A DNA stretch of 64,000 bases from Escherichia coli (lineage in GTDB: Bacteria; Pseudomonadota; Gammaproteobacteria; Enterobacterales; Enterobacteriaceae), in NCBI RefSeq assembly GCF_003334385.1, contig NZ_QOWN01000017.1; one strand, 5' to 3'. This document shows positions 2,836 to 63,648 of this stretch, piece after piece. Made by a program: the position numbers and the translations under genes. The stretch's first letter is position 1, and each line of letters begins with the position of its first letter. The notes beneath the pieces are model-generated. The model saw only the letters and a program-made list of their open reading frames with translations, ran no database searches and was not told where the DNA came from.

Positions 2836-4013
2836 ACATCTTTAATCCGCAGTAAGCAAAACAGAGTGGCGATAATCATCACCATCGCAAACCAGAACAC
2901 AGCGTGATAATTCCAGATCTCGGCGACGATGCCCGCCACTGATCCTGCGATGATCCAGCCCACGCGCGAAGTGTTGGTATAGAGCGTGGTGGCTGAACCC
3001 GCCTGACCGGGCATCAGATCCTGAAAATAGAGCATCCCGATGCCGCCCAGAATGCCAATAAAAATAGCATTTAGCAGCTGCAAGCCCAACAGAATGACAG
3101 GTGAATGCGCCATCAGCATTCCTGCGTAAAAACAGACGCCACCCACGGCAGCAACGCGCATTAAGAAACGCTTACCCAGACGTTTGGCGAAATATCCGGC
3201 AATCAACATCGTCGGGATTTCCAGCCCGGCGGCGGTCCCCATCATCACACCGGCCAGTTTCTCGGGAAGATGCAGTTCGTTGATAATAAATAGCGGCATG
3301 TTGATGATGTACAGGCTGTTCGAGCCCCACATCAATGTACAAATGACAAACAGCAGCAGCGTATCGCGACGGTTACGGCGCGGCGCTTCGATCGTGCCGG
3401 TCGCCAGCGGAAGCTCTTTTTGCATCGACGGTAAAAACAGCCACACCATCACACCGCAAACAATAAACGCTACCGCTGCGCTCAGATACATTACCGTAAA
3501 GCTGAAACCCATCGCTAAGGCATAAGCCAGCGGTGGGCCAATGACCCATGCCAGTGAAACCTGAGCGCGTAAAAAAGAGCTGAACATCACCGCCTCACGT
3601 CCGGTTTTGTCGGCATGTTCACGGGCAAGGGCAAACATTTGCGGGTTAGCGGTCGAGCCAAAGCTGCTAAGAAAGACGCCAACGAATAGCAAAACAAAGT
3701 AGTTGCGATTCCAGGCAAAAAGGGTGCAGGCCAGCACGCCTAACAGGCAGCAAAAGACAATCAGCGATTTGCGATCGCCGCGCTTATCAGAGCGCCCGGC
3801 GAGAAACTGACTTACCAGAATCCCAATGACAGCGCTGCCGGTAAAGAAGAATCCCACCATCGCCGGACGGGCATGTACTTCATCGGTAAGAAAAATACTG
3901 AGTGTCGGGGTTTGCAGAGCGCCCGCAATACCGGTGAGAAAGGCAACGATTAAAAACGCCGTCGAGGTCAGGTCAAACGATTTCGCGCTGGAGACTGCGG
4001 GGGAGTTATGCAT
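2832..4013 (-). CDS. setB: Sugar efflux transporter SetB (MFS)
   Basis: 393-aa ORF, multi-TM, matches SetB from start [11 protein letters not shown]. Confidence 0.93.
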
Positions 4014-53008: not shown

Positions 53009-54295
53009 TTACCCAGCTTTCTTATGGGGCATACATGGGACACTTTCAGATAGTCTTTTGTTAAGGAGTTCTATCTGTTCGTGATTGTTGTCTTTCATCC
53101 ATGCTCCGTAAACATTGAATACCATTTGTGCGTTTGTGTGGCCCATCTGGCTTGCGATAAAACTAGGATTAGCTCCAGCGGCAAGTGACCAGCATGCATA
53201 AGTATGCCTGGATTGGTACGATTTTCTGTGTCTCAGACCTGCGCGTTTTAAGATACTTGTCCATGACTCCCTGATGGAGTCAACCTTATAGTGCGGTCCG
53301 GAAAACTGCCGCTGTTTTATTACCTGAGGACTAAAAACAAAAGTGCATTTATGCACAGTACTTCTCCCATATTCCCTCTGCTTTACCTCTACAGAATGTT
53401 GCTTTCCAAGCATGGTCATTTCCGCCTGACTTTTAAGAGCATCAATAGCTGGTTGAACCAGATGAATTGTCCTTCCGGTGCCAGCATCGGTTTTTGGTGG
53501 AGTGAATTCGCCAAGTTTTGTATAATTCCTACGGATGGTTATAGTCCTTGCTTTAAGATCTATATCTTCCCATGCCAGCGATACCAGCTCCCCGTGACGA
53601 ATACCCGTGTATACAGCGAGAATCCACAGGTTTTTTGTTTGTTGATGACGGCAAGCCTCAATAAAACGAATAAATTCGTCACGGGTGAGAGGATCTGGTT
53701 TTACCTTGGACTTTTTTAAGGGGGCCAGACCGTTAAATGGGTTTCCTGAGGTATAACCATTATCTGTTGCAAATTGAAACATTCCAGCTATGGTTGTCAT
53801 ATAGTAGTTTACTGTGACCACTGAGCGCCCTTTTATGGAAGAAATCTTTCCATTAGAAAGCTTTTGGTAACCGGTCAACAAATCTCTCCTTGCGAAAAGT
53901 AAATCCTCTTTTGTTATGGATGAAACCAGTTTTTTCTCACCCAACATAGGCAACATGTTTTTAATTACTGACTGGTAACGATTAAGTGCATTCGCACAAA
54001 TCTCAATTTTCTTAAGGTCCAACCATTTTTCCGAAAGTGCCTTAACGGTTATCTCTCTTTTTCCCAGACCAAAGTGTTTCAGGTTAGGGGAATTAGGGAA
54101 CTGTGTAGCGTAGTCGAAACTCCCCATTCTGATTGCAAAACAAACGGAAGTGCGAAGTTCACCTGCGATCTTCCGGTTTTTGGCGGTGTCAGGAACACCG
54201 AGGTTTTCTCTGACACGTTTGCCATTATAGTGAAACCATATACGGAGTGATCCTCCATGGTTTTCAACGCCTGTCGGGTATGATACGTTACTCAT
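53009..54295 (-). CDS. int: Phage integrase (tyrosine recombinase)
   Basis: 428-aa ORF; GGGAGG SD; C-terminal catalytic region with conserved R...HxxR...Y pattern (RHTYACW, final Y in NVYGAWM). Confidence 0.85.
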   Translation of the reverse strand: MSNVSYPTGVENHGGSLRIWFHYNGKRVRENLGVPDTAKNRKIAGELRTSVCFAIRMGSFDYATQFPNSPNLKHFGLGKREITVKALSEKWLDLKKIEICANALNRYQSVIKNMLPMLGEKKLVSSITKEDLLFARRDLLTGYQKLSNGKISSIKGRSVVTVNYYMTTIAGMFQFATDNGYTSGNPFNGLAPLKKSKVKPDPLTRDEFIRFIEACRHQQTKNLWILAVYTGIRHGELVSLAWEDIDLKARTITIRRNYTKLGEFTPPKTDAGTGRTIHLVQPAIDALKSQAEMTMLGKQHSVEVKQREYGRSTVHKCTFVFSPQVIKQRQFSGPHYKVDSIRESWTSILKRAGLRHRKSYQSRHTYACWSLAAGANPSFIASQMGHTNAQMVFNVYGAWMKDNNHEQIELLNKRLSESVPCMPHKKAG

Positions 54296-54328: not shown

Positions 54329-54583
54329 TTAACCGGAACTTGCATTTTTGGCACCTGGTTGTTTCTGGTTTTCGATCCATCGCATAATTTCTTCGATGTT
54401 GTACAGGCATTCACTGTAATGCCCAGGATCACCTTCTACAGCGTAATGGCGGTATTCTTTTCCCTGCATCCATGACTTTCTTCTGGCCCGCTCGATGGTG
54501 CCGGGCTTTAGCCCTGTTGATGCAATAAGGACTCTCTCCGTACACCATTTGCTGGGGGTTATCTGATAGATGATTGTCTGCAT
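54329..54583 (-). CDS. Putative excisionase / small DNA-binding protein
   Basis: 84-aa basic ORF immediately upstream of int, same strand; resembles excisionase-like phage proteins (from memory). Confidence 0.5.
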   Translation of the reverse strand: MQTIIYQITPSKWCTERVLIASTGLKPGTIERARRKSWMQGKEYRHYAVEGDPGHYSECLYNIEEIMRWIENQKQPGAKNASSG

Positions 54584-54739
54584 GCCAGCCTCATAAAACT
54601 TTCATCCACGGCAGTGGCACCACATTTCAAACATTCGCTTCACAACTTCACGACAGTAGAAGCCATCAACATCTCGCGTCAGGTCATAGTGATTGCCGTA
54701 ACGCTGGTGGACCCATCGTTCAAATGCTTTATTCATTCT

Positions 54740-54982
54740 TTACTTCCTTTTTATGGCTCGTAATTTTTTCAGGTGCTTTTCCTGCTCAGTGTCCGCGAGA
54801 ATTTTGCGGTACTCCTGGTGGTCAATATGTTCGAACAGGCAGTTTAACTCACCAATGCGTACCCGCCCGGATCGTCCGTCCACCCGTCGAAAGAACACTG
54901 AGTGCTCAGTGATGCGAGTAATCACCACGGGGTATCCGGCTCTGTCCGTGTATATCTGACCGCGTTGAATCAAAGCGAACAT
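54740..54982 (-). CDS. Hypothetical phage protein (80 aa)
   Basis: Track ORF 54740..55018; ATG at 54982 preceded by GGGGA. Confidence 0.45.
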   Translation of the reverse strand: MFALIQRGQIYTDRAGYPVVITRITEHSVFFRRVDGRSGRVRIGELNCLFEHIDHQEYRKILADTEQEKHLKKLRAIKRK

Positions 54983-55066
54983 GTGGTTATCCCCATCGAC
55001 AAATCGAGAACACAACAAACGCTGCTGCGAATACCACCCCCAGAGTTACGATTGCATCAGGCCAGC

Positions 55067-56011
55067 TCATTGATTCACCTCCTGCCTGTCGTCCGGCATT
55101 CGCTCACTACAGCTTATCCAACCATCCGGAGTTACCGGAACTTGTGGAATGGCTGTCTGCTCTCGAACGTCATTAGGCGCTATAGGTTCTGCTGCCAACT
55201 GACTGGCATATTTGTTAATGGTAACGATAAGCTCTTGCTCAGCCTCATCCAGACAATCACCGATACCTCGCCTGTCACCGTCAAAATCATCGAAATCGGC
55301 ACGAATCCTGGCAACCTTCAGGATTGCGGACAACACCTCACTAGGAATTGCCGGATAGTTGGTTGACGTTTCCGCGATTTCCCGAAAATTATTGGTTGAC
55401 GAATTCTTGTTTTCCCGAAAGTTTCCGGACTGAAGCATGGCGGCGCGGCAGGCGTTCCATATTTCGGCAGCAATATCGCGCTCGCTATCGGTTAATTTGT
55501 ACGTTGAAACATAGCCAGAGAGCATTTCTACGTTTTCCGGAGTTGCTTCTTCAGGCACTACCGGTGCTGGCTCACGTATTACAGGCTCGCCCATGCGTGA
55601 TTCTCCCTGCGCCTCTTTCACCATGTGGTCATTGATTTGCTCCAGTCGCCGAACGTGCTCATCAGCTTCAAGCGCTCGCCGTTTCCAGATGGACAGGTCT
55701 TCACGAGCGCCCTGATATGCGTCACCGTATTCGCCGTTAAATACTGGCGCTGGCGGGGCGATGCGTCCAAGCAACTTATTTACCTCTTTCGCCATCGCGT
55801 CATATTTATCTAAATAGCGATTAGCTTCTAAGCAGACTCGGTGCATCTGATCTGAGTTAACTCGTTTAACTGGATCTGCTTCCAATGATGCCAGTGCAAT
55901 TCGTGCCAGTTCTTCCGCTTCTTCTGCTGGCAGTACAACGTTGCTACCCGGTCCGTATGTTTCGCGCCACTGCTTGATTGTCAGCAGTCGCCCTTTGGTA
56001 ATAGTGATCAT
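55067..56011 (-). CDS. Hypothetical phage protein (314 aa), shares RIALASLEA(D/E)PV motif with the 56428..56877 product
   Basis: Strong SD AAGAGGA; paralogous N-terminal motif; C-terminal GWISCSERMPDD resembles DUF551-type phage proteins (from memory). Confidence 0.6.
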   Translation of the reverse strand: MITITKGRLLTIKQWRETYGPGSNVVLPAEEAEELARIALASLEADPVKRVNSDQMHRVCLEANRYLDKYDAMAKEVNKLLGRIAPPAPVFNGEYGDAYQGAREDLSIWKRRALEADEHVRRLEQINDHMVKEAQGESRMGEPVIREPAPVVPEEATPENVEMLSGYVSTYKLTDSERDIAAEIWNACRAAMLQSGNFRENKNSSTNNFREIAETSTNYPAIPSEVLSAILKVARIRADFDDFDGDRRGIGDCLDEAEQELIVTINKYASQLAAEPIAPNDVREQTAIPQVPVTPDGWISCSERMPDDRQEVNQ

Positions 56012-56014
56012 GGG

Positions 56015-56203
56015 TTATCCTCTTAGCGCCACAACGCGCACTTCTGGGTCAAAGGATGATGAATTTTCATCTGTAATATCAGCAACATGACCTACAAAGT
56101 CGTTATACTCACACTCTGATTGTTCATAGCCCTGCCAGACCACGACAGCCTCAGGAGGCATTTTTCTGAGCTTGCTGATTAATTGCCTCACCGTCAGTGA
56201 CAT
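56015..56203 (-). CDS. Hypothetical small phage protein (62 aa)
   Basis: Perfect SD AAGGAG in an AAGGAGAGTGATATG junction; acidic C-terminus. Confidence 0.55.
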   Translation of the reverse strand: MSLTVRQLISKLRKMPPEAVVVWQGYEQSECEYNDFVGHVADITDENSSSFDPEVRVVALRG

Positions 56204-56204
56204 A

Positions 56205-56351
56205 TCACTCTCCTTTACCCGCTGCTTTCGCCTGCTCTTTAGCGAGTCGCTCCGCTTCTCTGAAATCCCAATCTACTCGATGTGCTATATCAATTGCAGA
56301 ACGCACGGTCCGTTCAATTAGCGTATCCAGGTTATCAATTGTCATTGCCAT
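56205..56351 (-). CDS. Possible small phage protein (48 aa)
   Basis: ORF below track threshold; helical charged sequence; stop TGA lies in the coupling junction to the next gene; no clear SD. Confidence 0.3.
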   Translation of the reverse strand: MAMTIDNLDTLIERTVRSAIDIAHRVDWDFREAERLAKEQAKAAGKGE

Positions 56352-56427
56352 ATCTGGATTGCGAGATAAAATCTCCGCCCTCTGAATCTGCTAGTTGTTG
56401 CAGGTTTCAAGTAATGAGTTAGCCATA

Positions 56428-56877
56428 TCACTCTCCTTTGATGCCAATGTTTACAGCCTGGCAAGCCTCTTTGAGTACCCAGTCAACAGCGTCTTTCCAT
56501 GCTCCGGTTTCGACTGGCGGATTTTCACGCTTAACCTGTTCATAGAAACGCACTGCTTTAATCAATCCTTCTGATGTCAGTGGCACAGGCGGGGCAGTGA
56601 ATAACGCCTGAATTTCATAGTTCGGTCTGTCGTTGCAATCCTCTTTTGTCGGTACATATTTCCAGTCACCAACCCACGAATCCCCCTGAGAGTCCGTAAC
56701 ACCTTTTTTCACGTAGCGATATCGCCACGCGACTGGCTCTGCTTCCAACGATGCCAGTGCGATACGAAACACATTGGCAAGCAGGCTGCTTGAAGATTGG
56801 TTATCGTGCGCCGGGTCGCTCAGGAAACCAGTGATGAATGATTTAATTTCCGCGTTTTCTCTGGTAATAGTGGTCAT
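56428..56877 (-). CDS. Hypothetical phage protein (149 aa), paralogous motif with 55067..56011
   Basis: SD GAGGA; start overlaps upstream stop (ATGA). Confidence 0.6.
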   Translation of the reverse strand: MTTITRENAEIKSFITGFLSDPAHDNQSSSSLLANVFRIALASLEAEPVAWRYRYVKKGVTDSQGDSWVGDWKYVPTKEDCNDRPNYEIQALFTAPPVPLTSEGLIKAVRFYEQVKRENPPVETGAWKDAVDWVLKEACQAVNIGIKGE

Positions 56878-57083
56878 TTATTAATCCTCAAAACTTTATG
56901 CCCGGGCGCAAAAGCACGTGTTTTGTCTTTGCTTATTCGCCAGCCATCCTTGCGCGCCTCTTTTGCACAGCCAGCCCATGACGTACCGATATACTCACCG
57001 AAGTCTGGCGTTTGATATTTACCATTTGTACACTGGCAACAATCACAGTAGAGATGCATGGTGTAACTTGCGGAAATAGCCAT
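56874..57083 (-). CDS. Small Cys-rich phage protein (69 aa; CDCCQC...C, possible zinc ribbon)
   Basis: Start at internal ATG of track ORF 56874..57191 with perfect SD (AAGGAGCCTGATATG); upstream gene stop sits in the SD spacer. Confidence 0.55.
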   Translation of the reverse strand: MAISASYTMHLYCDCCQCTNGKYQTPDFGEYIGTSWAGCAKEARKDGWRISKDKTRAFAPGHKVLRINK

Positions 57084-57084
57084 A

Positions 57085-57276
57085 TCAGGCTCCTTTAGTG
57101 CGTAAGTGGTTTTTCCAGCGGTTTTGCGCCGCGCTGCGCTTATCTTTGATTCCCTCTCTGGCAATTCCAGAATATAAGTACAACACCACACGGCGATTGC
57201 TAACTCTCAACCACTGGCTGGGATAGCAACGTCTGTATACACGGGAGATAAGCATCTTTGCTTTACGGTTTTTCAT
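57085..57276 (-). CDS. Small basic phage protein (63 aa), tandem paralogue A
   Basis: N-terminus MKNRKAKMLISR...WLRVSNRRV conserved with the adjacent upstream ORF at protein level; ATGA-coupled. Confidence 0.5.
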   Translation of the reverse strand: MKNRKAKMLISRVYRRCYPSQWLRVSNRRVVLYLYSGIAREGIKDKRSAAQNRWKNHLRTKGA

Positions 57277-57455
57277 CTTACTGCGTACCCTTTCTTCCGC
57301 CTGTTCTGTGACGCGCTAGGCTTTTTGCAACAACTGTGCCCCATCACCCCGCAACACCCCGTCAACCTCACTCGTCTGTTACTAATCCTCAACCATCGCC
57401 AGACCCCAACACCGTTTCTGCGAGCTAACAGAATTTTTGCCTTACGGTTTTTCAT
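57273..57455 (-). CDS. Small basic phage protein (60 aa), tandem paralogue B
   Basis: MKNRKAKILLAR...WLRISNRRV; SD AGGAGA; start overlaps upstream stop (ATGA). Confidence 0.5.
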   Translation of the reverse strand: MKNRKAKILLARRNGVGVWRWLRISNRRVRLTGCCGVMGHSCCKKPSASQNRRKKGYAVR

Positions 57456-57628
57456 CGTTTTGTTCTCCTGCGTTTCTTTGCTGCTCGTCGTGCCGCTGCA
57501 ATACCGGTATGGCGGCGCTTTGGTGCCGGGATGATGTTGTCAGCCATCAGGACATGTGGCTTTGCAATTAGCGCAGAAGCCCAAAAACGAGTCGGGTACG
57601 GTAACAAGCCGATACATGCCACACGCAT
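57452..57628 (-). CDS. Small basic phage protein (58 aa)
   Basis: Below track threshold; SD AGGAGG 6 nt before ATG; start overlaps the Ea22-like stop (TAATG) and stop overlaps next start (ATGA). Confidence 0.5.
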   Translation of the reverse strand: MRVACIGLLPYPTRFWASALIAKPHVLMADNIIPAPKRRHTGIAAARRAAKKRRRTKR

Positions 57629-58443
57629 TACTCACCTCCTTTGATGCGAATGCCTGCGGCGCGGATTGCAGCGATGACTTCAGAAACTTTGTATGCCATT
57701 ACCGTTTGGTAATCATCGTGAAAATCTGTTCGATGAAGCATGCTGCTACGTTCCGGGAGCGATATTTCCCGAGCATCCAGTTCCTTAACGCGTTCCTCCA
57801 GTTCGTAGACCCTGCATTGTTCTCTATCATCAATCAGATATAACCCAAGACATTCGCTTTCTACCCAACCGCCAAAATCATGATCGTAACGCTCACATGA
57901 AAACTCACCGTCACCGTCCTTTGTTGGAATGGTGTAACTATCTAATGTGCCACCATATGTCGGCACATTTCCCAATGTTGGATGCTCAATCCACATGAAA
58001 AATGCACGTCCGGTTATTGGGCAAATATCTGGCCGCCATTGGTTACGAACAGCCTTGGTTTCGGATAATTCTTCAGCGTGTTGTTTTACTTCCTCAAGCT
58101 CAACTCTCAGCTTCCCTACCGTTAGCGCAATATCCTCGTTCTCCTGATCGCGGCTTTTGATGTATTGCAGGTTTCTTTCCCGTTCATCCAGCAGTGCCAG
58201 CACGGTAGCCGGGTTAGCCTCTGCTATGAATTCAGCGTTTGCATAAGCCTGAGCATCTGTTTCAACCAGGCAGTTAACGTGACATTCTGCAATTACGCCA
58301 CCGGGTTCTCCTTTCCATTTTTGACAAACAAAAACTCCTGTTAAATTGCCGTGTTGGTTAACAGATGTATGCCCTACGATGTAGCTTCCTTTAGTTGCTT
58401 TCTCTGCCTTTTCACGCAGTGCCTGATAGTCAATCTTGCTCAC
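57628..58443 (-). CDS. Ea22-like phage protein (271 aa)
   Basis: GTG start with SD AAGGAGG; contains LLDERERNLQYIKSRDQENEDIALTVGKLRVELEE and C-terminal GIRIKGGE, which I recall as characteristic of lambda Ea22. Confidence 0.65.
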   Translation of the reverse strand: MSKIDYQALREKAEKATKGSYIVGHTSVNQHGNLTGVFVCQKWKGEPGGVIAECHVNCLVETDAQAYANAEFIAEANPATVLALLDERERNLQYIKSRDQENEDIALTVGKLRVELEEVKQHAEELSETKAVRNQWRPDICPITGRAFFMWIEHPTLGNVPTYGGTLDSYTIPTKDGDGEFSCERYDHDFGGWVESECLGLYLIDDREQCRVYELEERVKELDAREISLPERSSMLHRTDFHDDYQTVMAYKVSEVIAAIRAAGIRIKGGE

Positions 58444-58744
58444 TGGCAGCCTCCTTTGCCGGGATTTCTAACTTTTGAGTGGTTGTATCAAATTCAAACA
58501 ACTTAACCACGTCATCAAACAGGACATAATCACCATCAGGATTTTCAGTCATATCTGCGCCACAATCCTGACCGCACGAGTCGCAACCATCCATATCAAG
58601 CTCGTATCGCTTCAGGTTTGCGATATTTGATAAATTCAGCGCCAGTACAGCCAGGTCATAAACCTCTTCGGCAGTGACATCGCTGTTCAGTCCCATTTCA
58701 TGGCGATATATGATTTTTTCTACTCGTTGTTTTGTGATCGTCAT
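58430..58744 (-). CDS. Hypothetical phage protein (about 104 aa)
   Basis: Track ORF 58430..58768; ATG at 58744 (MTITKQR...); alternative start at 58696 possible; acidic, Cys-containing. Confidence 0.45.
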   Translation of the reverse strand: MTITKQRVEKIIYRHEMGLNSDVTAEEVYDLAVLALNLSNIANLKRYELDMDGCDSCGQDCGADMTENPDGDYVLFDDVVKLFEFDTTTQKLEIPAKEAASEQD

Positions 58745-59015
58745 TTTTCTCTTCACTCCGATATACAAGGATTACTACACCCCCTCTGCTGATTGCGCGA
58801 GCTGGATCCCCTGGTTCCATGCCGTCAATTCCGAAGGCTTCGGAAAACGCATTCATTGCCTTCTGGCGTTCATCCTGCTTACGGCGTTTATTCCATTTTT
58901 TCAGGAACAACAGCGACAGCCACCGTCCGCTGCAGAACACGATGTAAAAATAACCAAGGAGCGCCAGGCCGACATTCAGGGCCGTTTCTATGGTTAGTTG
59001 TGAGTCAGTTGCCAT
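58698..59015 (-). CDS. Small membrane protein (105 aa; one N-terminal TM helix, then basic stretch)
   Basis: Hydrophobic segment LNVGLALLGYFYIVFCSGRWLSLLFL followed by KKWNKRRKQDERQK; 3' end overlaps next gene so true stop/start uncertain. Confidence 0.4.
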   Translation of the reverse strand: MATDSQLTIETALNVGLALLGYFYIVFCSGRWLSLLFLKKWNKRRKQDERQKAMNAFSEAFGIDGMEPGDPARAISRGGVVILVYRSEEKNDDHKTTSRKNHISP

Positions 59016-59253
59016 TTCTTACCTGTTTAAGTAACTGGTTGAACATAACACTTAGGGGATTGCTGTATCCAAACGGCAGATTGTTTACGCAGTACAGAAT
59101 CATTTTGTTTTTTTCTCCAGTTCGTACTATTAACCCATTCCACAATAACCGTGATAATTCATTACTGATAGAAGTTGCGCTTCTTCCAAGTGCGAGGGAT
59201 ATATCTTCTCTACTGCAATCTGGATTTTCCTGGATATACTCGATAACGGTCAT
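59005..59253 (-). CDS. Putative winged-helix DNA-binding protein (82 aa)
   Basis: Track ORF 59005..59295; ATG at 59253 (MTVIEYIQENPDCSREDISLALGRSATSISNELSRLLWNGLIVRTG...) resembles a wHTH. Confidence 0.45.
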   Translation of the reverse strand: MTVIEYIQENPDCSREDISLALGRSATSISNELSRLLWNGLIVRTGEKNKMILYCVNNLPFGYSNPLSVMFNQLLKQVRNGN

Positions 59254-59263
59254 GTGGTCCCTT

Positions 59264-59845
59264 TTACTTAATATCTGTTTCGGATTGCATGCCATGAGTA
59301 TTCATTTCGTTAATAATTTCATCCAGAAGGATTTCAAGCCCTTCTCGACCCATATCTGAAAGAATGAAACCTTTATCAGGGGAAGTAGTGAGCATTTTCT
59401 GATAAAGAAACAGCGCTCTTCCCATTCCTTCAGTTTCGCCGTATTTTTGAATTAAATTCCATTCAATATACTGTTGTAAGGCAAATCGAATGGGGCCGGG
59501 ATATATCGTCATAAACCCATACATCCCGTTATATACCACGGCGTGTTCAGTTGTTCCGTGTTCATTCAGGATATCAATTGTGCCGTTCTTGTCTTCTTCT
59601 TCGTTGATGAATGTCGTCACATACAACCATCGCCACTGAGCAACCTTCATCTCAACCGGAAGTTTACCCAGTAATCCTGCTTCGTCGGCTTGCGCCAGAC
59701 ACTGAAGGATACGTAAACCTCGCACATTAGGAGTATCGAATTCTCCGGCATCCAGACGACGTATGGCGTCGTGATAATCAATCGTCATACTGCCAGTTCG
59801 TATACCATTGGCTGTTGCTTCAGCCTGGAATTCATCGTATTGCAT
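59264..59845 (-). CDS. Hypothetical phage protein (193 aa)
   Basis: SD GAGGA; no recognisable motifs. Confidence 0.55.
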   Translation of the reverse strand: MQYDEFQAEATANGIRTGSMTIDYHDAIRRLDAGEFDTPNVRGLRILQCLAQADEAGLLGKLPVEMKVAQWRWLYVTTFINEEEDKNGTIDILNEHGTTEHAVVYNGMYGFMTIYPGPIRFALQQYIEWNLIQKYGETEGMGRALFLYQKMLTTSPDKGFILSDMGREGLEILLDEIINEMNTHGMQSETDIK

Positions 59846-59850
59846 GATAT

Positions 59851-60039
59851 TTATTCCTCATCTTCATCTTCATCTGCTGGTGCAATAACGTCATATCCTG
59901 CCTTTTCTGCAATAAACAGGAATGTTGAAAGAGTTCCTACAAGTTCATCGTCATGAACATGGCGAATGAATATTACTTTCCCGTTTTTGATGGTCAGCAA
60001 TATTCTGGTTTGTTCGTGTTCTGCTGTTTTCTGATGCAT
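59851..60039 (-). CDS. Small phage protein with acidic tail (62 aa; ...APADEDEDEE)
   Basis: SD GGGAGA; stop 6 nt before next start. Confidence 0.5.
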   Translation of the reverse strand: MHQKTAEHEQTRILLTIKNGKVIFIRHVHDDELVGTLSTFLFIAEKAGYDVIAPADEDEDEE

Positions 60040-60233
60040 TATTATCTCCCGTATGCTTTACGCAGAAATAAGCAGGCAATATGCATGTAATTTTCACCGT
60101 ATTGTGCAATAAGGCAGGCGGTCTTGTGTGATGCCATATTCTTTATAAAAGTCACAATAAAGCCTCCTGTGGATTAAGGTTGTAACAATCCCCGGCGATA
60201 AAACCGCAATAAACGTTCAGGGCATATTTGTTG

Positions 60234-60599
60234 TTATTGCGCTAATTCTTTTTCGGCAGCAGCTTTTGTATACTCACATGCAAAACTCAGAATTTCGCTG
60301 CCGAGTGTTTTCGTTTCGTGATTACTGGACATATGTAATACCTGTGTTGCATGCAATAAATGATAAACATTTACCGCAAATGAATCAGGCTCCAGACAAA
60401 TGCCTTCGTAATTATCTTGCTGTGAGGTTGTTTCTGTCATTGCTCCTGAAGTGCATGCGAGCCTGTTTTTGACAATTCTCTTTTCTCTAATCACTATATC
60501 GGCAACATCTATTGCCTTTACAACCTCCGGGAGAAGTTCCGGGTTTGTATAATCAAAGTCATCAACATGGAGAACAGTTATGTTTTCGAACTTTTTCAT
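60234..60599 (-). CDS. Hypothetical phage protein (121 aa); C-terminal half paralogous to the N-terminal domain of the 60728..61276 product
   Basis: SD GAGGAAG; alignment LEPDSFAVNVYHLL...KTLGSEILSFACEYTKAAA versus LELDSFALNIANLL...KELGIEVMEFIHEYALSAA. Confidence 0.55.
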   Translation of the reverse strand: MKKFENITVLHVDDFDYTNPELLPEVVKAIDVADIVIREKRIVKNRLACTSGAMTETTSQQDNYEGICLEPDSFAVNVYHLLHATQVLHMSSNHETKTLGSEILSFACEYTKAAAEKELAQ

Positions 60600-60727
60600 G
60601 GCTTCCTCAGCTGACTTATATGTTCTGCTATATAGCGAGTCTCAGAAGTGTTTTCATATTGAGACTGTTTCCACAATGATTGATAAAAATGTTCGCATGT
60701 ACCTTGAAGGGCGAAGCGGCGATTATG

Positions 60728-61276
60728 TCACCATTGGTATTGGTTCTTCCGCAGAAGAGCTTCGCGAGATAAGGGGCAAACTTGTTGAGATGCGTCATGG
60801 TGTTGCTGCTCCTCACTTTTTGGTTGCTCCGGAGGAGTAACCTCACCAGTTAACAGGCACATCGGATCGCAGCCAAGAATATTTGCCAGTGGGATAAGCA
60901 TACTGATAGTTGGTTCATACTCTCCGCTCTCCCACTGGATGATAATTTCTTCATCGAGATCGAGCAGCCTGGCGAGTTCGGCGGTTGTTAAGCCGCAGGC
61001 TTCGCGTTGGGTGCGAAGGTTAACCAGCCAGCTTTCAGGGAAGGATTGTTTTTGCTGTGCAGGAGAAGCAGCAGATAGAGCATATTCATGGATAAATTCC
61101 ATTACCTCAATGCCCAGTTCCTTTGAGCGAGCACAATCCAGAAGATGGAATGTGCGTACAGCACTTAGCAAATTTGCAATATTTAATGCAAAGGAATCAA
61201 GTTCTAAGCCCTTAAGCGTAACACAGCCGCAGTTGATAAAATTAGTTGTTTCTGGAGTTGCTTTTAGTGTCTTCAT
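60728..61276 (-). CDS. Two-domain protein: N-terminal unknown domain plus C-terminal XRE-type HTH (182 aa)
   Basis: ATG at 61276 (track ORF extends to 61306); HTH segment GLTTAELARLLDLDEEIIIQWESGEYEPT; first gene downstream of a sigma70-like promoter next to cI. Confidence 0.55.
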   Translation of the reverse strand: MKTLKATPETTNFINCGCVTLKGLELDSFALNIANLLSAVRTFHLLDCARSKELGIEVMEFIHEYALSAASPAQQKQSFPESWLVNLRTQREACGLTTAELARLLDLDEEIIIQWESGEYEPTISMLIPLANILGCDPMCLLTGEVTPPEQPKSEEQQHHDASQQVCPLSREALLRKNQYQW

Positions 61277-61329
61277 ATATCCGCCAACAATTTTAAATTG
61301 AATCAAATCAAGTTATAATTGATGGTGCG

Positions 61330-61358
61330 ATATTATGTTTTGGGAAACAGGCTGTCAA
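61330..61358 (-). promoter_or_regulatory. Sigma70-type promoter (pL-like) reading leftward, away from cI
   Basis: On minus strand: TTGACA (61358..61353), 17-bp spacer, TAATAT (61335..61330); about 45 nt upstream of the 61276 start. Confidence 0.6.
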
Positions 61359-61388: not shown

Positions 61389-61410
61389 AAAAAAAACGGG
61401 CAAAGCCCGT
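61389..61410 (-). terminator. Rho-independent terminator just downstream of cI
   Basis: Minus strand: ACGGGC-TTT-GCCCGT followed by T8 (plus-strand A8 at 61389..61396). Confidence 0.75.
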
Positions 61411-61422
61411 TAAAATCAAAGA

Positions 61423-62112
61423 CTAACCAAATCTGTTTATGTTGAATGGTACTGATGAGATCACTTTAGACTGGATATAAAGCAGAGCTAACCCCTCTTT
61501 TTCGATGCTCCATGGTTGATAATTGGGGTTATCAGATAACACCATGATTTTGCTTCCAATTTTTTGAAGCCTTTTCACGTAGCATTCTCCATCAAAACAA
61601 AATGCATAAATACCATCGCCATCAAAATAAGTTACTGTCTTATCAAGAAAAAGAAGGTCGCCAGGTGAGATTGTGGGAGCCATACTGTCTCCTCTGGCGT
61701 TACCTATTTCTATATTTTTGAATGCCCGATTTCCAACAAGACGTCGGGCATATTCAGGATCAAGTTCTATTGAGCGCACTACATCTATCAAGTCACCACG
61801 GACATGAGTTCCATCACCGCAACTAAACTCAACATCAAGGACATTAAATACGACGCTATCTGTTCTTGTCTGGTGTTTCTCTTGCGAGGAAAAGGTTGGT
61901 GAGGAGTCTTCACCTAAGAACCAGGATTGTGGATAACCGCTAATCTCTGATAAATGCGCGAGCTTATCACTCCGTGGAAATGTTTTTCCTGTTGTCCAGT
62001 ACTGCACTGATTGCGCACTCACACCTAACTTGCGGGCCAGTTGAGCCTGAGTCCATCCTTTTGCTTTCAGCATCGCGGCTATTCGATTTTCCGTGTTTTT
62101 GACGTTCTTCAT
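61423..62112 (-). CDS. cI: CI-type prophage repressor (N-terminal HTH plus C-terminal S24 LexA-like autopeptidase), 229 aa
   Basis: ATG at 62112 (MKNVKNTENRIAAMLKAKGWTQAQLARKLGVSAQSVQYW); S24 motifs GDSMAPT (Ser) and YVKRL (Lys); divergent from Cro-like gene. Confidence 0.85.
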   Translation of the reverse strand: MKNVKNTENRIAAMLKAKGWTQAQLARKLGVSAQSVQYWTTGKTFPRSDKLAHLSEISGYPQSWFLGEDSSPTFSSQEKHQTRTDSVVFNVLDVEFSCGDGTHVRGDLIDVVRSIELDPEYARRLVGNRAFKNIEIGNARGDSMAPTISPGDLLFLDKTVTYFDGDGIYAFCFDGECYVKRLQKIGSKIMVLSDNPNYQPWSIEKEGLALLYIQSKVISSVPFNINRFG

Positions 62113-62245
62113 GACCAAATCCTGTGGGTTTCTTTACAAGGATAAATCTTTACTTGATTTTAGTGTATTCGATCCTTTTGTAACTTGCATGTTAATTTAA
62201 ACTTGATGTATTCTTGATTTATAAAGTTAATATTGGTGTTTTGTT

Positions 62246-62536
62246 ATGGAAGGAAATGATTACGACAAACTTCGTGCATTAATTGCGCAAAATGCCATAG
62301 CGCGAAATCTTGGTGTGACGCCGCAAGCGGTGAATCAGTGGTTTTCAAAAAGCACAATTCCTGCTCGTTTCGTTTTACGAGTATGTGAAGTAGTTGCATG
62401 GAAGGTTACGCCTCATGGCTTAAGGCCAGATCTTTATCCTCACCCTGAAGATGGAATTCCTAACTTGTTACGCAAAAGCCTAAATCCAAGTTCACCACAC
62501 AGAGCGGATGGAATACACGCAGGAGATAAACAATGA
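62246..62536 (+). CDS. cro: Cro-like HTH regulator (YdaS/DUF1019-like), 96 aa
   Basis: HTH NLGVTPQAVNQW; HGLRPDLYP motif; divergent to cI across a 133-bp AT-rich intergenic region. Confidence 0.7.
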   Translation: MEGNDYDKLRALIAQNAIARNLGVTPQAVNQWFSKSTIPARFVLRVCEVVAWKVTPHGLRPDLYPHPEDGIPNLLRKSLNPSSPHRADGIHAGDKQ

Positions 62537-63240
62537 ACACCGCAATTTTTAACGGCAAAGCATCCATGACCAGCGTTGAGATCGCAGAGCTGGTGGGAAG
62601 CCGACCAGATAGTGTTAAGAGAACTATTGAAACACTGGCTAAAAAGGGAATCATCCAATTTCCACAGACTGTGGAAATTGAGAATAAACAATCACTTGGG
62701 CCTCGCCGATTTTCTAGCGCGTATGTATTCGAAGGTGAACGAGGTAAGCGCGACAGCATCATTGTCGTCGCACAGCTCTGTCCTGAATTCACAGCTCGCC
62801 TGGTAGATCGCTGGCGCGAACTGGAAGAACAGATCCGTAAGCCAATGAGCGAAATCGAAATGGTTGCCGCGATGGCTCTTGAAGCCGTTCGCCAACAGAA
62901 ACGGATCACTCAGGTGGAAGAAAAAGTCAGCCACGTTGCTGAAACAGTCGAGCAAATTAAAAAGGGCACTATTCGTGAGGGCTATGCCGGATATCGCCAA
63001 CTGAAAGCAAAAACCGGTTTGTCAGATGATAAATGCCGCAATCTGGTGAACGCCTATCAAATTCCTACAGACACACATGAGTTCATGACGCCGGACGGAT
63101 TGTTGTCACGTCGCGCAATTGTTGCTGTGGAACCGTTTATGGCTGCTTTTTATCGGGTTATGGAGGAAGCAGAACCGCGAGGGACTCGCTGGTATCACCC
63201 GAAAATGGGGTTATTTCAGGTTATTGGTTGGCAGCGATGA
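62533..63240 (+). CDS. Putative phage regulatory / antirepressor-like protein (235 aa)
   Basis: Start overlaps cro stop (ATGA); N-terminus MTSVEIAELVGSRPDSVKRTIETLAKKG resembles Rha/Bro-N-type DNA-binding N-domains. Confidence 0.5.
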   Translation: MNTAIFNGKASMTSVEIAELVGSRPDSVKRTIETLAKKGIIQFPQTVEIENKQSLGPRRFSSAYVFEGERGKRDSIIVVAQLCPEFTARLVDRWRELEEQIRKPMSEIEMVAAMALEAVRQQKRITQVEEKVSHVAETVEQIKKGTIREGYAGYRQLKAKTGLSDDKCRNLVNAYQIPTDTHEFMTPDGLLSRRAIVAVEPFMAAFYRVMEEAEPRGTRWYHPKMGLFQVIGWQR

Positions 63241-63648
63241 AAAAAAGCCGGGAGTAACCCGGCTCACTCAACATCAATAACGGGGAGCTGTTTCGCATAA
63301 AACGGCTCCGAAACATCCAAGAACAGTTCTAAAGATATCAGCAGCTATATGATCATTTCAAGACCAAATATTGATTCTGCAATTCCGGGACGTTACACTG
63401 CTCAGGCACCTTATAAAGCGGGTGCCGGGGGTCGCAGCCCGGAATTGTCAACGGCGATATATGACGCGCCAGCGTCTTTTTTATCGTCCGCGCTCACGCA
63501 CGCCAGAATTATGGTGGGCTGGGCAGGGGAGCCGAAAGGCTCGCCGGTCTCCGTTGACGCCGGTACTGCGAACCCTGTTCAGTCTGCCACCAGTGAGTTT
63601 CGCAGCTCCGGTGGTGGAAGTTTTCCACAGTCAACGGAGGCTGCCATC

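Follow-up and report, generated by a model that had tools for sequence, protein, structure and literature searches.

Does the 105-codon open reading frame (ORF) at positions 58698..59015, on the minus strand of the 64,000-nucleotide stretch of Escherichia coli DNA analyzed here (the window), encode a genuine protein, where does that protein end, and what might it do for its phage? The first-pass annotation had described the product as a small single-pass membrane protein of an early-left operon, with the architecture of Kil, holin-like, or superinfection exclusion peptides. The ORF is confirmed on the minus strand: it starts with ATG, stops with TGA, and its full 105-amino-acid translation (MATDSQLTIETALNVGLALLGYFYIVFCSGRWLSLLFLKKWNKRRKQDERQKAMNAFSEAFGIDGMEPGDPARAISRGGVVILVYRSEEKNDDHKTTSRKNHISP) matches the sequence quoted in that annotation.

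A genuine prophage gene of the DUF4752 family

The length of the ORF alone does not place it beyond chance, given that the ORF list also holds plus-strand ORFs of 107 and 188 amino acids at the same locus. These two ORFs are what speaks for a chance ORF or antisense artifact, with the true gene on the plus strand. A comparison of eight homologous loci argues against this: the minus-strand frame alone stays open in every one of them, whereas the antisense frames of the plus-strand ORFs are interrupted by stops in other phages, with one antisense frame open only in HK106. Codon alignments of seven homologues, from phages of E. coli, Klebsiella, Salmonella, and Erwinia, gave dN/dS values of 0.13 to 0.33 where dS was unsaturated, with changes concentrated at third codon positions. 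Taken together with the family matches, the only frame that is always open and the third-position bias with low dN/dS identify the minus-strand frame as a real gene. Both its status as a genuine prophage gene under purifying selection and its family assignment are near certain. A plus-strand gene is refuted by the Pfam match, the dN/dS values, and the eight-homologue frame comparison, which leaves the antisense reading with practically no probability.

The family in question is the uncharacterized Pfam family DUF4752 (PF15944), whose model is matched at positions 2 to 84 of 84 by residues 8 to 90 (E value of 8.6e-37). The corresponding PHROG family, phrog_667, is matched over positions 1 to 93 of 94 (E value of 3.2e-40), and the DUF4752 profile is also matched by all 29 aligned family members. 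The translation is identical to that of RefSeq entry WP_000179800.1, a “DUF4752 family protein” from E. coli SCU-105, and the copy in phage PhiR49_2 is 100% identical as well. The gene is thus already known, a catalogued and ordinary phage gene. When 1.84 billion representatives were scanned exhaustively with HMMER, only 38 clusters were retrieved at an E value of ≤0.001, showing a small and restricted family. By tblastn, the gene is present in 135 of 50,697 phage records, with Escherichia (including many Stx phages), Salmonella, Klebsiella, Shigella, Erwinia, and Hafnia as host genera. We conclude that it is a stand-alone accessory gene of temperate Enterobacterales phages.

Relatives within DUF4752/PHROG 667 include VT2-Sakai orf78 (NP_050577.1), ST64T gp30, HK106_031, and D6 orf94. 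They are homologous over residues 1 to ∼91, share the same order of helix, basic motif, and hairpin, lie in early operons of temperate Enterobacterales phages, and differ only in the 14-residue C-terminal tail, which is dictated by the downstream gene. Searches of NCBIfam, PDB sequences, and PADLOC gave no match to the protein (0 PADLOC families at an E value of ≤0.1), and a fold search of its AlphaFold2 (AF2) model against PDB, BFVD, and AFDB50 returned DUF4752 members or noise only. A literature search, confined to one searchable library, on the family, its accessions, and close phages (PhiR49) found no mention, and one on ea22/transmembrane and eaE found nothing relevant.

The overlap at the 3′ end is a mosaic junction

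The gene overlaps both of its neighbors. At its 5′ end, 11 nucleotides (nt) (ATGGCAACTGA; 59005..59015, minus strand) place its start codon over the stop of the upstream winged-helix gene. At its 3′ end, it shares 47 nt (58698-58744) with the next gene, which encodes a 104-amino-acid protein (58430..58744, minus strand) and whose start at 58744 is backed by a full-length match to phrog_3126 (E value of 1.9e-63). The 3′ overlap had been noticed before and had led the first-pass annotation to call the true length of the ORF uncertain.

Several observations account for this overlap. The sequence GGAGTGAAGAGAAAAATG (58742..58759, minus strand), located inside the 3′ end of the coding sequence (CDS), carries two signals of the downstream gene, its ribosome-binding site (GGAG) and its ATG. 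In the window, in Stx1_14040, and in VT2-Sakai, the DUF4752 frame is not closed by a stop at this motif and continues, out of frame, into the gene that follows. As a result, residues 92 to 105 (DDHKTTSRKNHISP; 58701..58742, minus strand) form a nonconserved tail, in which the beginning of the next gene is read in the wrong frame. Both the Pfam and the PHROG profiles stop at residues 90 to 93. Near-identical cores bear at least four different tails, according to the gene that follows; these end in ...KNDDHKTTSRKNHISP in the window, ...KNERDQLSGTA in Stx1_14040, and ...KNEQD in VT2-Sakai. In addition, nucleotide identity to the Stx1 phages ends at ∼58738.

The same arrangement recurs among close relatives. 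In 74 of 81 loci (close relatives only, retrieved with a narrow alignment), the next start codon comes immediately after the GGAGTGAAGAGAAAAATG motif. The downstream partner is the 104- to 105-amino-acid gene beginning MTITKQRVE in 58 of these loci and an Ea22-like gene of 72 to 353 amino acids in 16, so that at least two unrelated gene families are joined at the motif in close relatives. Upstream partners belong to at least three families among the close relatives and overlap the gene by 11 nt or 4 nt. The 104-amino-acid gene is missing between the DUF4752 and Ea22-like genes of VT2-Sakai and, relative to that phage, is an extra module inserted between the two.

The profile ends, the varying tails, and the point at which identity stops together show that the ORF is truly 105 amino acids long, while its last 14 residues are a by-product of the mosaic junction. 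The earlier doubt about length was therefore misplaced for the ORF and justified for the protein: only residues 1 to ∼91 are conserved, and the tail results from the joining of phage modules. In the sequence, the mosaic junction coincides with a translational-coupling signal. We consider this explanation of the 3′ overlap to be the most useful result of the analysis.

Position in the leftward operon and in other phages

The last 11 kb of the window are a prophage integrated beside mlrA (yehV). Its minus strand carries a CI-type repressor gene, cI (61423-62118), followed by a strong terminator-like hairpin found by scanning (61395-61411) and, just downstream of this terminator, a candidate leftward early promoter, TTGACA-17-TAATAT (61330..61358), with 10 of 12 matches in a consensus scan and thus recognized by pattern only. 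Farther along the same strand are a helix-turn-helix (HTH) gene (60728-61306), three more genes (60234-60599, 59851-60039, and 59264-59845), and the small winged-helix (MarR-like) protein gene immediately upstream of the DUF4752 gene (59005..59295; phrog_1687, E value of 1.3e-24). Past the DUF4752 and 104-amino-acid genes follow several Ea22-like or unassigned genes, excisionase (54329-54583), and integrase (53009-54295), all on the minus strand. A cro-like gene (62246-62536) lies on the plus strand. The 28-nt segment at 61296-61323 forms a partial inverted repeat with one in the cI-cro interval (62142-62169; 71% complementary), and these two sites could be shared OL/OR operators. On this layout, with the gene pointing leftward between cI and xis/int, its placement in an early-left operon, as previously annotated, is a fair reading and is kept here.

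Pattern scans of the gene's own strand found no promoter-like site directly upstream of its start and no promoter-like or terminator-like site flanking it, which is weak evidence. Given that the gene also sits tight against both neighbors, this is not the organization of a prophage-expressed “moron.”

The leftward operon (54600-61306, minus strand) consists almost entirely of Ea22-like or unassigned genes, together with genes for two small proteins of the HTH or winged-helix type; no N, exo, bet, gam, kil, or cIII was recognizable in it. The winged-helix ORF at 59005-59295 (minus strand) has been annotated in records of Stx1 phages, with Stx1_14040 listing it as MarR family, and is not a constant partner of the DUF4752 gene in relatives. 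Its equivalent in E. coli SCU-105, between the CDSs labeled “DUF4752” and “hypothetical protein,” was left unannotated by PGAP.

Other features of the prophage were observed along the way. Three minus-strand genes (55067-56011, 56428-56877, and 58430-58744) have similar N termini (M(T)ITITK... or MTITKQR...) that match the N-terminal parts of phrog_3323 and phrog_60, and these repeated 5′ modules could be recombination points among ea-region genes. Two tandem, overlapping, paralogous small basic ORFs of 63 and 60 amino acids (57085-57276 and 57273-57455, minus strand) both start with MKNRKAK and contain ...L(R/R)(V/I)SNRRV, and their 5′ ends form a direct repeat (D4). On the plus strand, just downstream of a Rha/Ant-like gene (62533-63240), Rfam models matched at gathering level an isrK Hfq-binding RNA (63406-63482; 58.7 bits) and a C4 antisense RNA (63507-63594; 78.8 bits); together with the Rha/Ant-like gene, these look like a P1/P7-type antirepressor-control module in a lambdoid prophage. 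The window is ∼99 to 100% identical to phage PhiR49_2 only over ∼58.3 to 61.2 kb, and neither the integrase side nor the immunity/replication side is related to that phage, a clear example of lambdoid mosaicism.

Across phages, the DUF4752 gene occupies different positions. It lies in the ea region in VT2-Sakai, the Stx1 phages, HK106, and a P22-like phage; in ST64T and phiEt88, it lies in the nin region, where it comes right after the replicative helicase gene. It is also carried by the P1-like plasmid prophage D6 and by a Klebsiella phage. In all contexts examined, the gene points in the same direction as early genes, and no neighbor is constant, suggesting that the protein most likely acts alone and early. 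In the P22-like Salmonella phage BIS08P22, an unannotated DUF4752 homologue (3501-3746; 44% identity) lies between the EaE and EaF CDSs. We rejected the name “EaE protein” for the P22-like match, since that label belongs to the neighboring CDS.

Predicted membrane topology and conserved architecture

The conserved part of the protein can be divided into four segments. Residues 1 to 8 (MATDSQLT; 58992..59015, minus strand) form a short acidic tail that, by its charge and the positive-inside rule, is predicted to be periplasmic; residues 1 to 13 have a net charge of −2 and contain no K or R. Residues 9 to 28 (IETALNVGLALLGYFYIVFC; 58932..58991, minus strand) are a predicted transmembrane helix, as judged from hydropathy, the AF2 model, and column conservation. 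Residues 29 to 53 (SGRWLSLLFLKKWNKRRKQDERQKA; 58857..58931, minus strand) comprise a juxtamembrane part and a polybasic W-x-K-R-R-K...R-Q-K-A stretch, helical in the AF2 model and predicted from charge and conservation to be cytoplasmic. Residues 54 to 87 (58755..58856, minus strand) contain, according to the alignment and AF2, a helix with the pattern N-x-F-Y-D-A-F-x-L-D, a P-G turn, and a β-hairpin with the pattern T-x-G-x-x-x-I-x-x-x-R. The highly basic stretch described in the first-pass annotation is thus real: residues 38 to 55 (LKKWNKRRKQDERQKAMN) have a net charge of +6, and the basic flank is conserved across the family.

That annotation had also spoken of one strongly hydrophobic helix. 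A single N-terminal helix is indeed present throughout the family, but “strongly” overstates the case, since the hydropathy values of the segment are barely above the usual transmembrane thresholds. The best 19-residue Kyte-Doolittle (KD) window covers residues 12 to 30 with a score of 1.67, and the Eisenberg mean hydrophobicity is 0.63 to 0.67 with a low hydrophobic moment. Simple summation on the Hessa scale gives positive values, a point against a transmembrane helix. The segment has ∼19 to 20 consecutive uncharged residues and is rich in aromatic ones.

We assessed the architecture of the family from the alignment of 29 members and its per-column conservation. The hydrophobic window occupies the same N-terminal place in nearly all 29, with a median KD score of 1.59 (≥1.6 in 14 members and ≥1.2 in 28). 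In most members (23 of 29), the stretch preceding the helix is free of basic residues, and the C-terminal flank has a median net charge of +3 over the next 15 residues. Within the helix, the family shares a G-x4-G-[YW]-x-[YF]-I motif, with conservation of G16 (77%), L17 (81%), G21 (85%), an aromatic residue (Y/W) at position 22 (92%), another at position 24 (96%), and I25 (92%). Position 28 is K or R in 65% of the members and therefore marks the end of the helix. Beyond it, W32 (88%), W41 (73%), R45 (77%), and A53 (92%) are conserved, as are K43-R44-R45, A60-F61-x-L63, G69, I82, and R86.

The AF2 model, built from this alignment and mediocre overall (mean pLDDT of 69 and pTM of 0.29), shows one long helix over residues 3 to 61, with a pLDDT of ∼90 over residues 11 to 30, and a β-hairpin with strands at residues 72 to 76 and 80 to 84, the latter at low confidence (pLDDT of 55 to 59). 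Weak matches to Pfam HemY_N, a membrane N terminus, occurred in six members; we took them as compositional, reflecting a transmembrane helix followed by a basic stretch, and rejected homology to HemY_N.

The positive-inside rule is an established basis for inferring topology and, given the charge asymmetry across the helix, predicts an N-out/C-in orientation. The protein is probably a single-pass inner membrane anchor, with its insertion and its topology both predicted from sequence. The borderline hydropathy leaves some room for a soluble protein, in which the helix would be buried in an oligomer (a coiled coil or helical bundle) and the basic stretch would bind nucleic acid. Such a protein would fit a KD score of 1.67 in a family of which half the members lie below 1.6, the K or R at position 28 in many members, the polar residues N14 and T15 inside the segment, and the high conservation of the basic motif. 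It would fit less well with ∼19 to 20 uncharged, aromatic-rich residues in a row, with a low hydrophobic moment, which indicates that the segment lacks an amphipathic pattern, or with the conserved charge asymmetry across the segment; the weak HemY_N matches in six members point the same way. We therefore regard a soluble protein as rather unlikely and continue with the membrane anchor.

Resemblance to YajC

Past the helix and the basic stretch, the family has the consensus L-D-x-I-x-P-G-x-x-x-x-V-T-T-K-G-G-L, which is similar to E. coli YajC (MDSIAKGDEVLTNGGLVGRV). YajC also has its elements in this order, namely, an N-out single-pass helix, a basic stretch, and a hairpin motif like L-D-x-I-x-x-G-D-x-V-x-T-x-G-G-L-V, whereas the C-terminal half of YajC is absent from DUF4752. 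This raises the idea of a phage-encoded, truncated YajC look-alike that would insert beside SecDF/YidC of the Sec translocon. The collinear layout, in which hhalign aligns exactly that motif, is all that speaks for it. The hhalign match is not significant (P values of 0.022 with a single sequence and 0.067 with a shallow alignment, whose returned sequences were ≥83% identical) and spans only 20 to 25 columns. Moreover, the deep Pfam YajC model (PF02699) matched 0 of the 29 members at an E value of ≤0.1, and YajC was absent among the fold matches. We consider a YajC look-alike very improbable; if it were true, host membrane protein insertion or secretion would be retuned early in infection.

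Comparison with Kil, holins, lysis proteins, and exclusion proteins

The labels Kil, holin, and exclusion peptide, proposed in the first-pass annotation on the basis of architecture, have no support in the sequence. λ Kil, CIII, and SieB share the general neighborhood, the leftward early operon, with the DUF4752 gene. The architecture is not that of Kil, since Kil has no hydrophobic segment (KD maximum of 0.67), and neither has CIII. SieB is 184 amino acids long as annotated, has hydrophobic stretches, and is encoded on the opposite strand. Comparison of the DUF4752 profile by hhalign gave probabilities of 0.1% for λ Kil, 0.1% for λ SieB, ≤0.2% for λ CIII, and 0.2% for YdfD of the Qin prophage. 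With all of these at or below 0.2%, kinship with any of the four proteins was rejected. As for holins, the gene lies between cI and xis/int and not in the late lysis cassette, which is outside the window, so that, from gene position alone, a holin role is unlikely.

Similarity of layout, as opposed to sequence, is seen with YdfD and with protein E of φX174, both small proteins whose N terminus forms a hydrophobic helix and whose C-terminal part is cytoplasmic. E acts on MraY, and in both E and YdfD the N-terminal helix is a membrane helix that carries a cytoplasmic tail, which in E is dispensable. YdfD, moreover, comes from a lambdoid prophage (Qin), where its gene is part of the early operon. 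By analogy, the DUF4752 protein might be a host-killing or lysis toxin whose helix inhibits an essential inner membrane enzyme or the division machinery. The shared gross architecture, the sequence-specific conservation of the helix, and a place in the early operon, typical of prophage growth inhibitors (kil and dicB/ydfD), are consistent with such a toxin. The cytoplasmic domain, however, is as conserved as the helix, in contrast to the tail of E, and sets DUF4752 apart from YdfD as well. Sequence similarity to YdfD or λ Kil is lacking, Kil is not hydrophobic, and the gene is very common in intact prophages. A toxin is therefore an unlikely explanation.

A superinfection exclusion or defense factor would instead block DNA entry at the inner membrane, which is how T4 Imm and HK97 gp15 exclude other phages. 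A small inner membrane protein of a temperate phage would suit this role, as would the patchy, mobile distribution of the gene, which resembles that of accessory or defense genes. The analogy nevertheless finds no backing in PADLOC matches or in similarity to λ SieB. The overlaps on both sides, without an adjacent promoter-like site, argue against expression from the prophage, the usual pattern for exclusion genes. Given that the gene lies behind the cI terminator and the candidate early promoter, it should be repressed in the lysogen. The gene is also found in phages of different virion types, which implies different entry routes. On balance, we find an exclusion function quite improbable.

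Proposed role

Our overall reading, which we hold to be about evenly poised, is that of an early single-pass inner membrane accessory protein acting through a conserved helix face and a cytoplasmic domain. Induction or infection would turn on transcription of the gene along with that of the other leftward early genes, and its translation would be coupled to that of both neighbors through the 11-nt and 47-nt overlaps. The N-terminal helix of ∼20 residues would insert into the inner membrane, with the short acidic N terminus outside and the rest inside. This would place ∼60 residues at the cytoplasmic face, namely, the polybasic W-x-KRRK stretch, an amphipathic helix, and the small β-hairpin. 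Since the conserved face of the helix (G16, G21, Y/W22, the aromatic residue at position 24, and I25) is specific beyond general hydrophobicity, it may pack against itself or against a host inner membrane protein, and the cytoplasmic part may modulate the target so bound. This interaction is proposed from conservation patterns, and the target and the physiological effect of the protein are speculative. The role would be a dispensable host takeover function during early lytic growth rather than lysis.

For this locus, the result mainly cleans up the annotation, in that the gene is real and its 3′ overlap is explained, which will not surprise specialists. Members of the family occur widely among temperate phages of E. 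coli, Salmonella, Klebsiella, Erwinia, and Hafnia, Shiga toxin phages among them. Given that the family is both widespread and uncharacterized, expression and topology data for one member would annotate hundreds of prophage genes.
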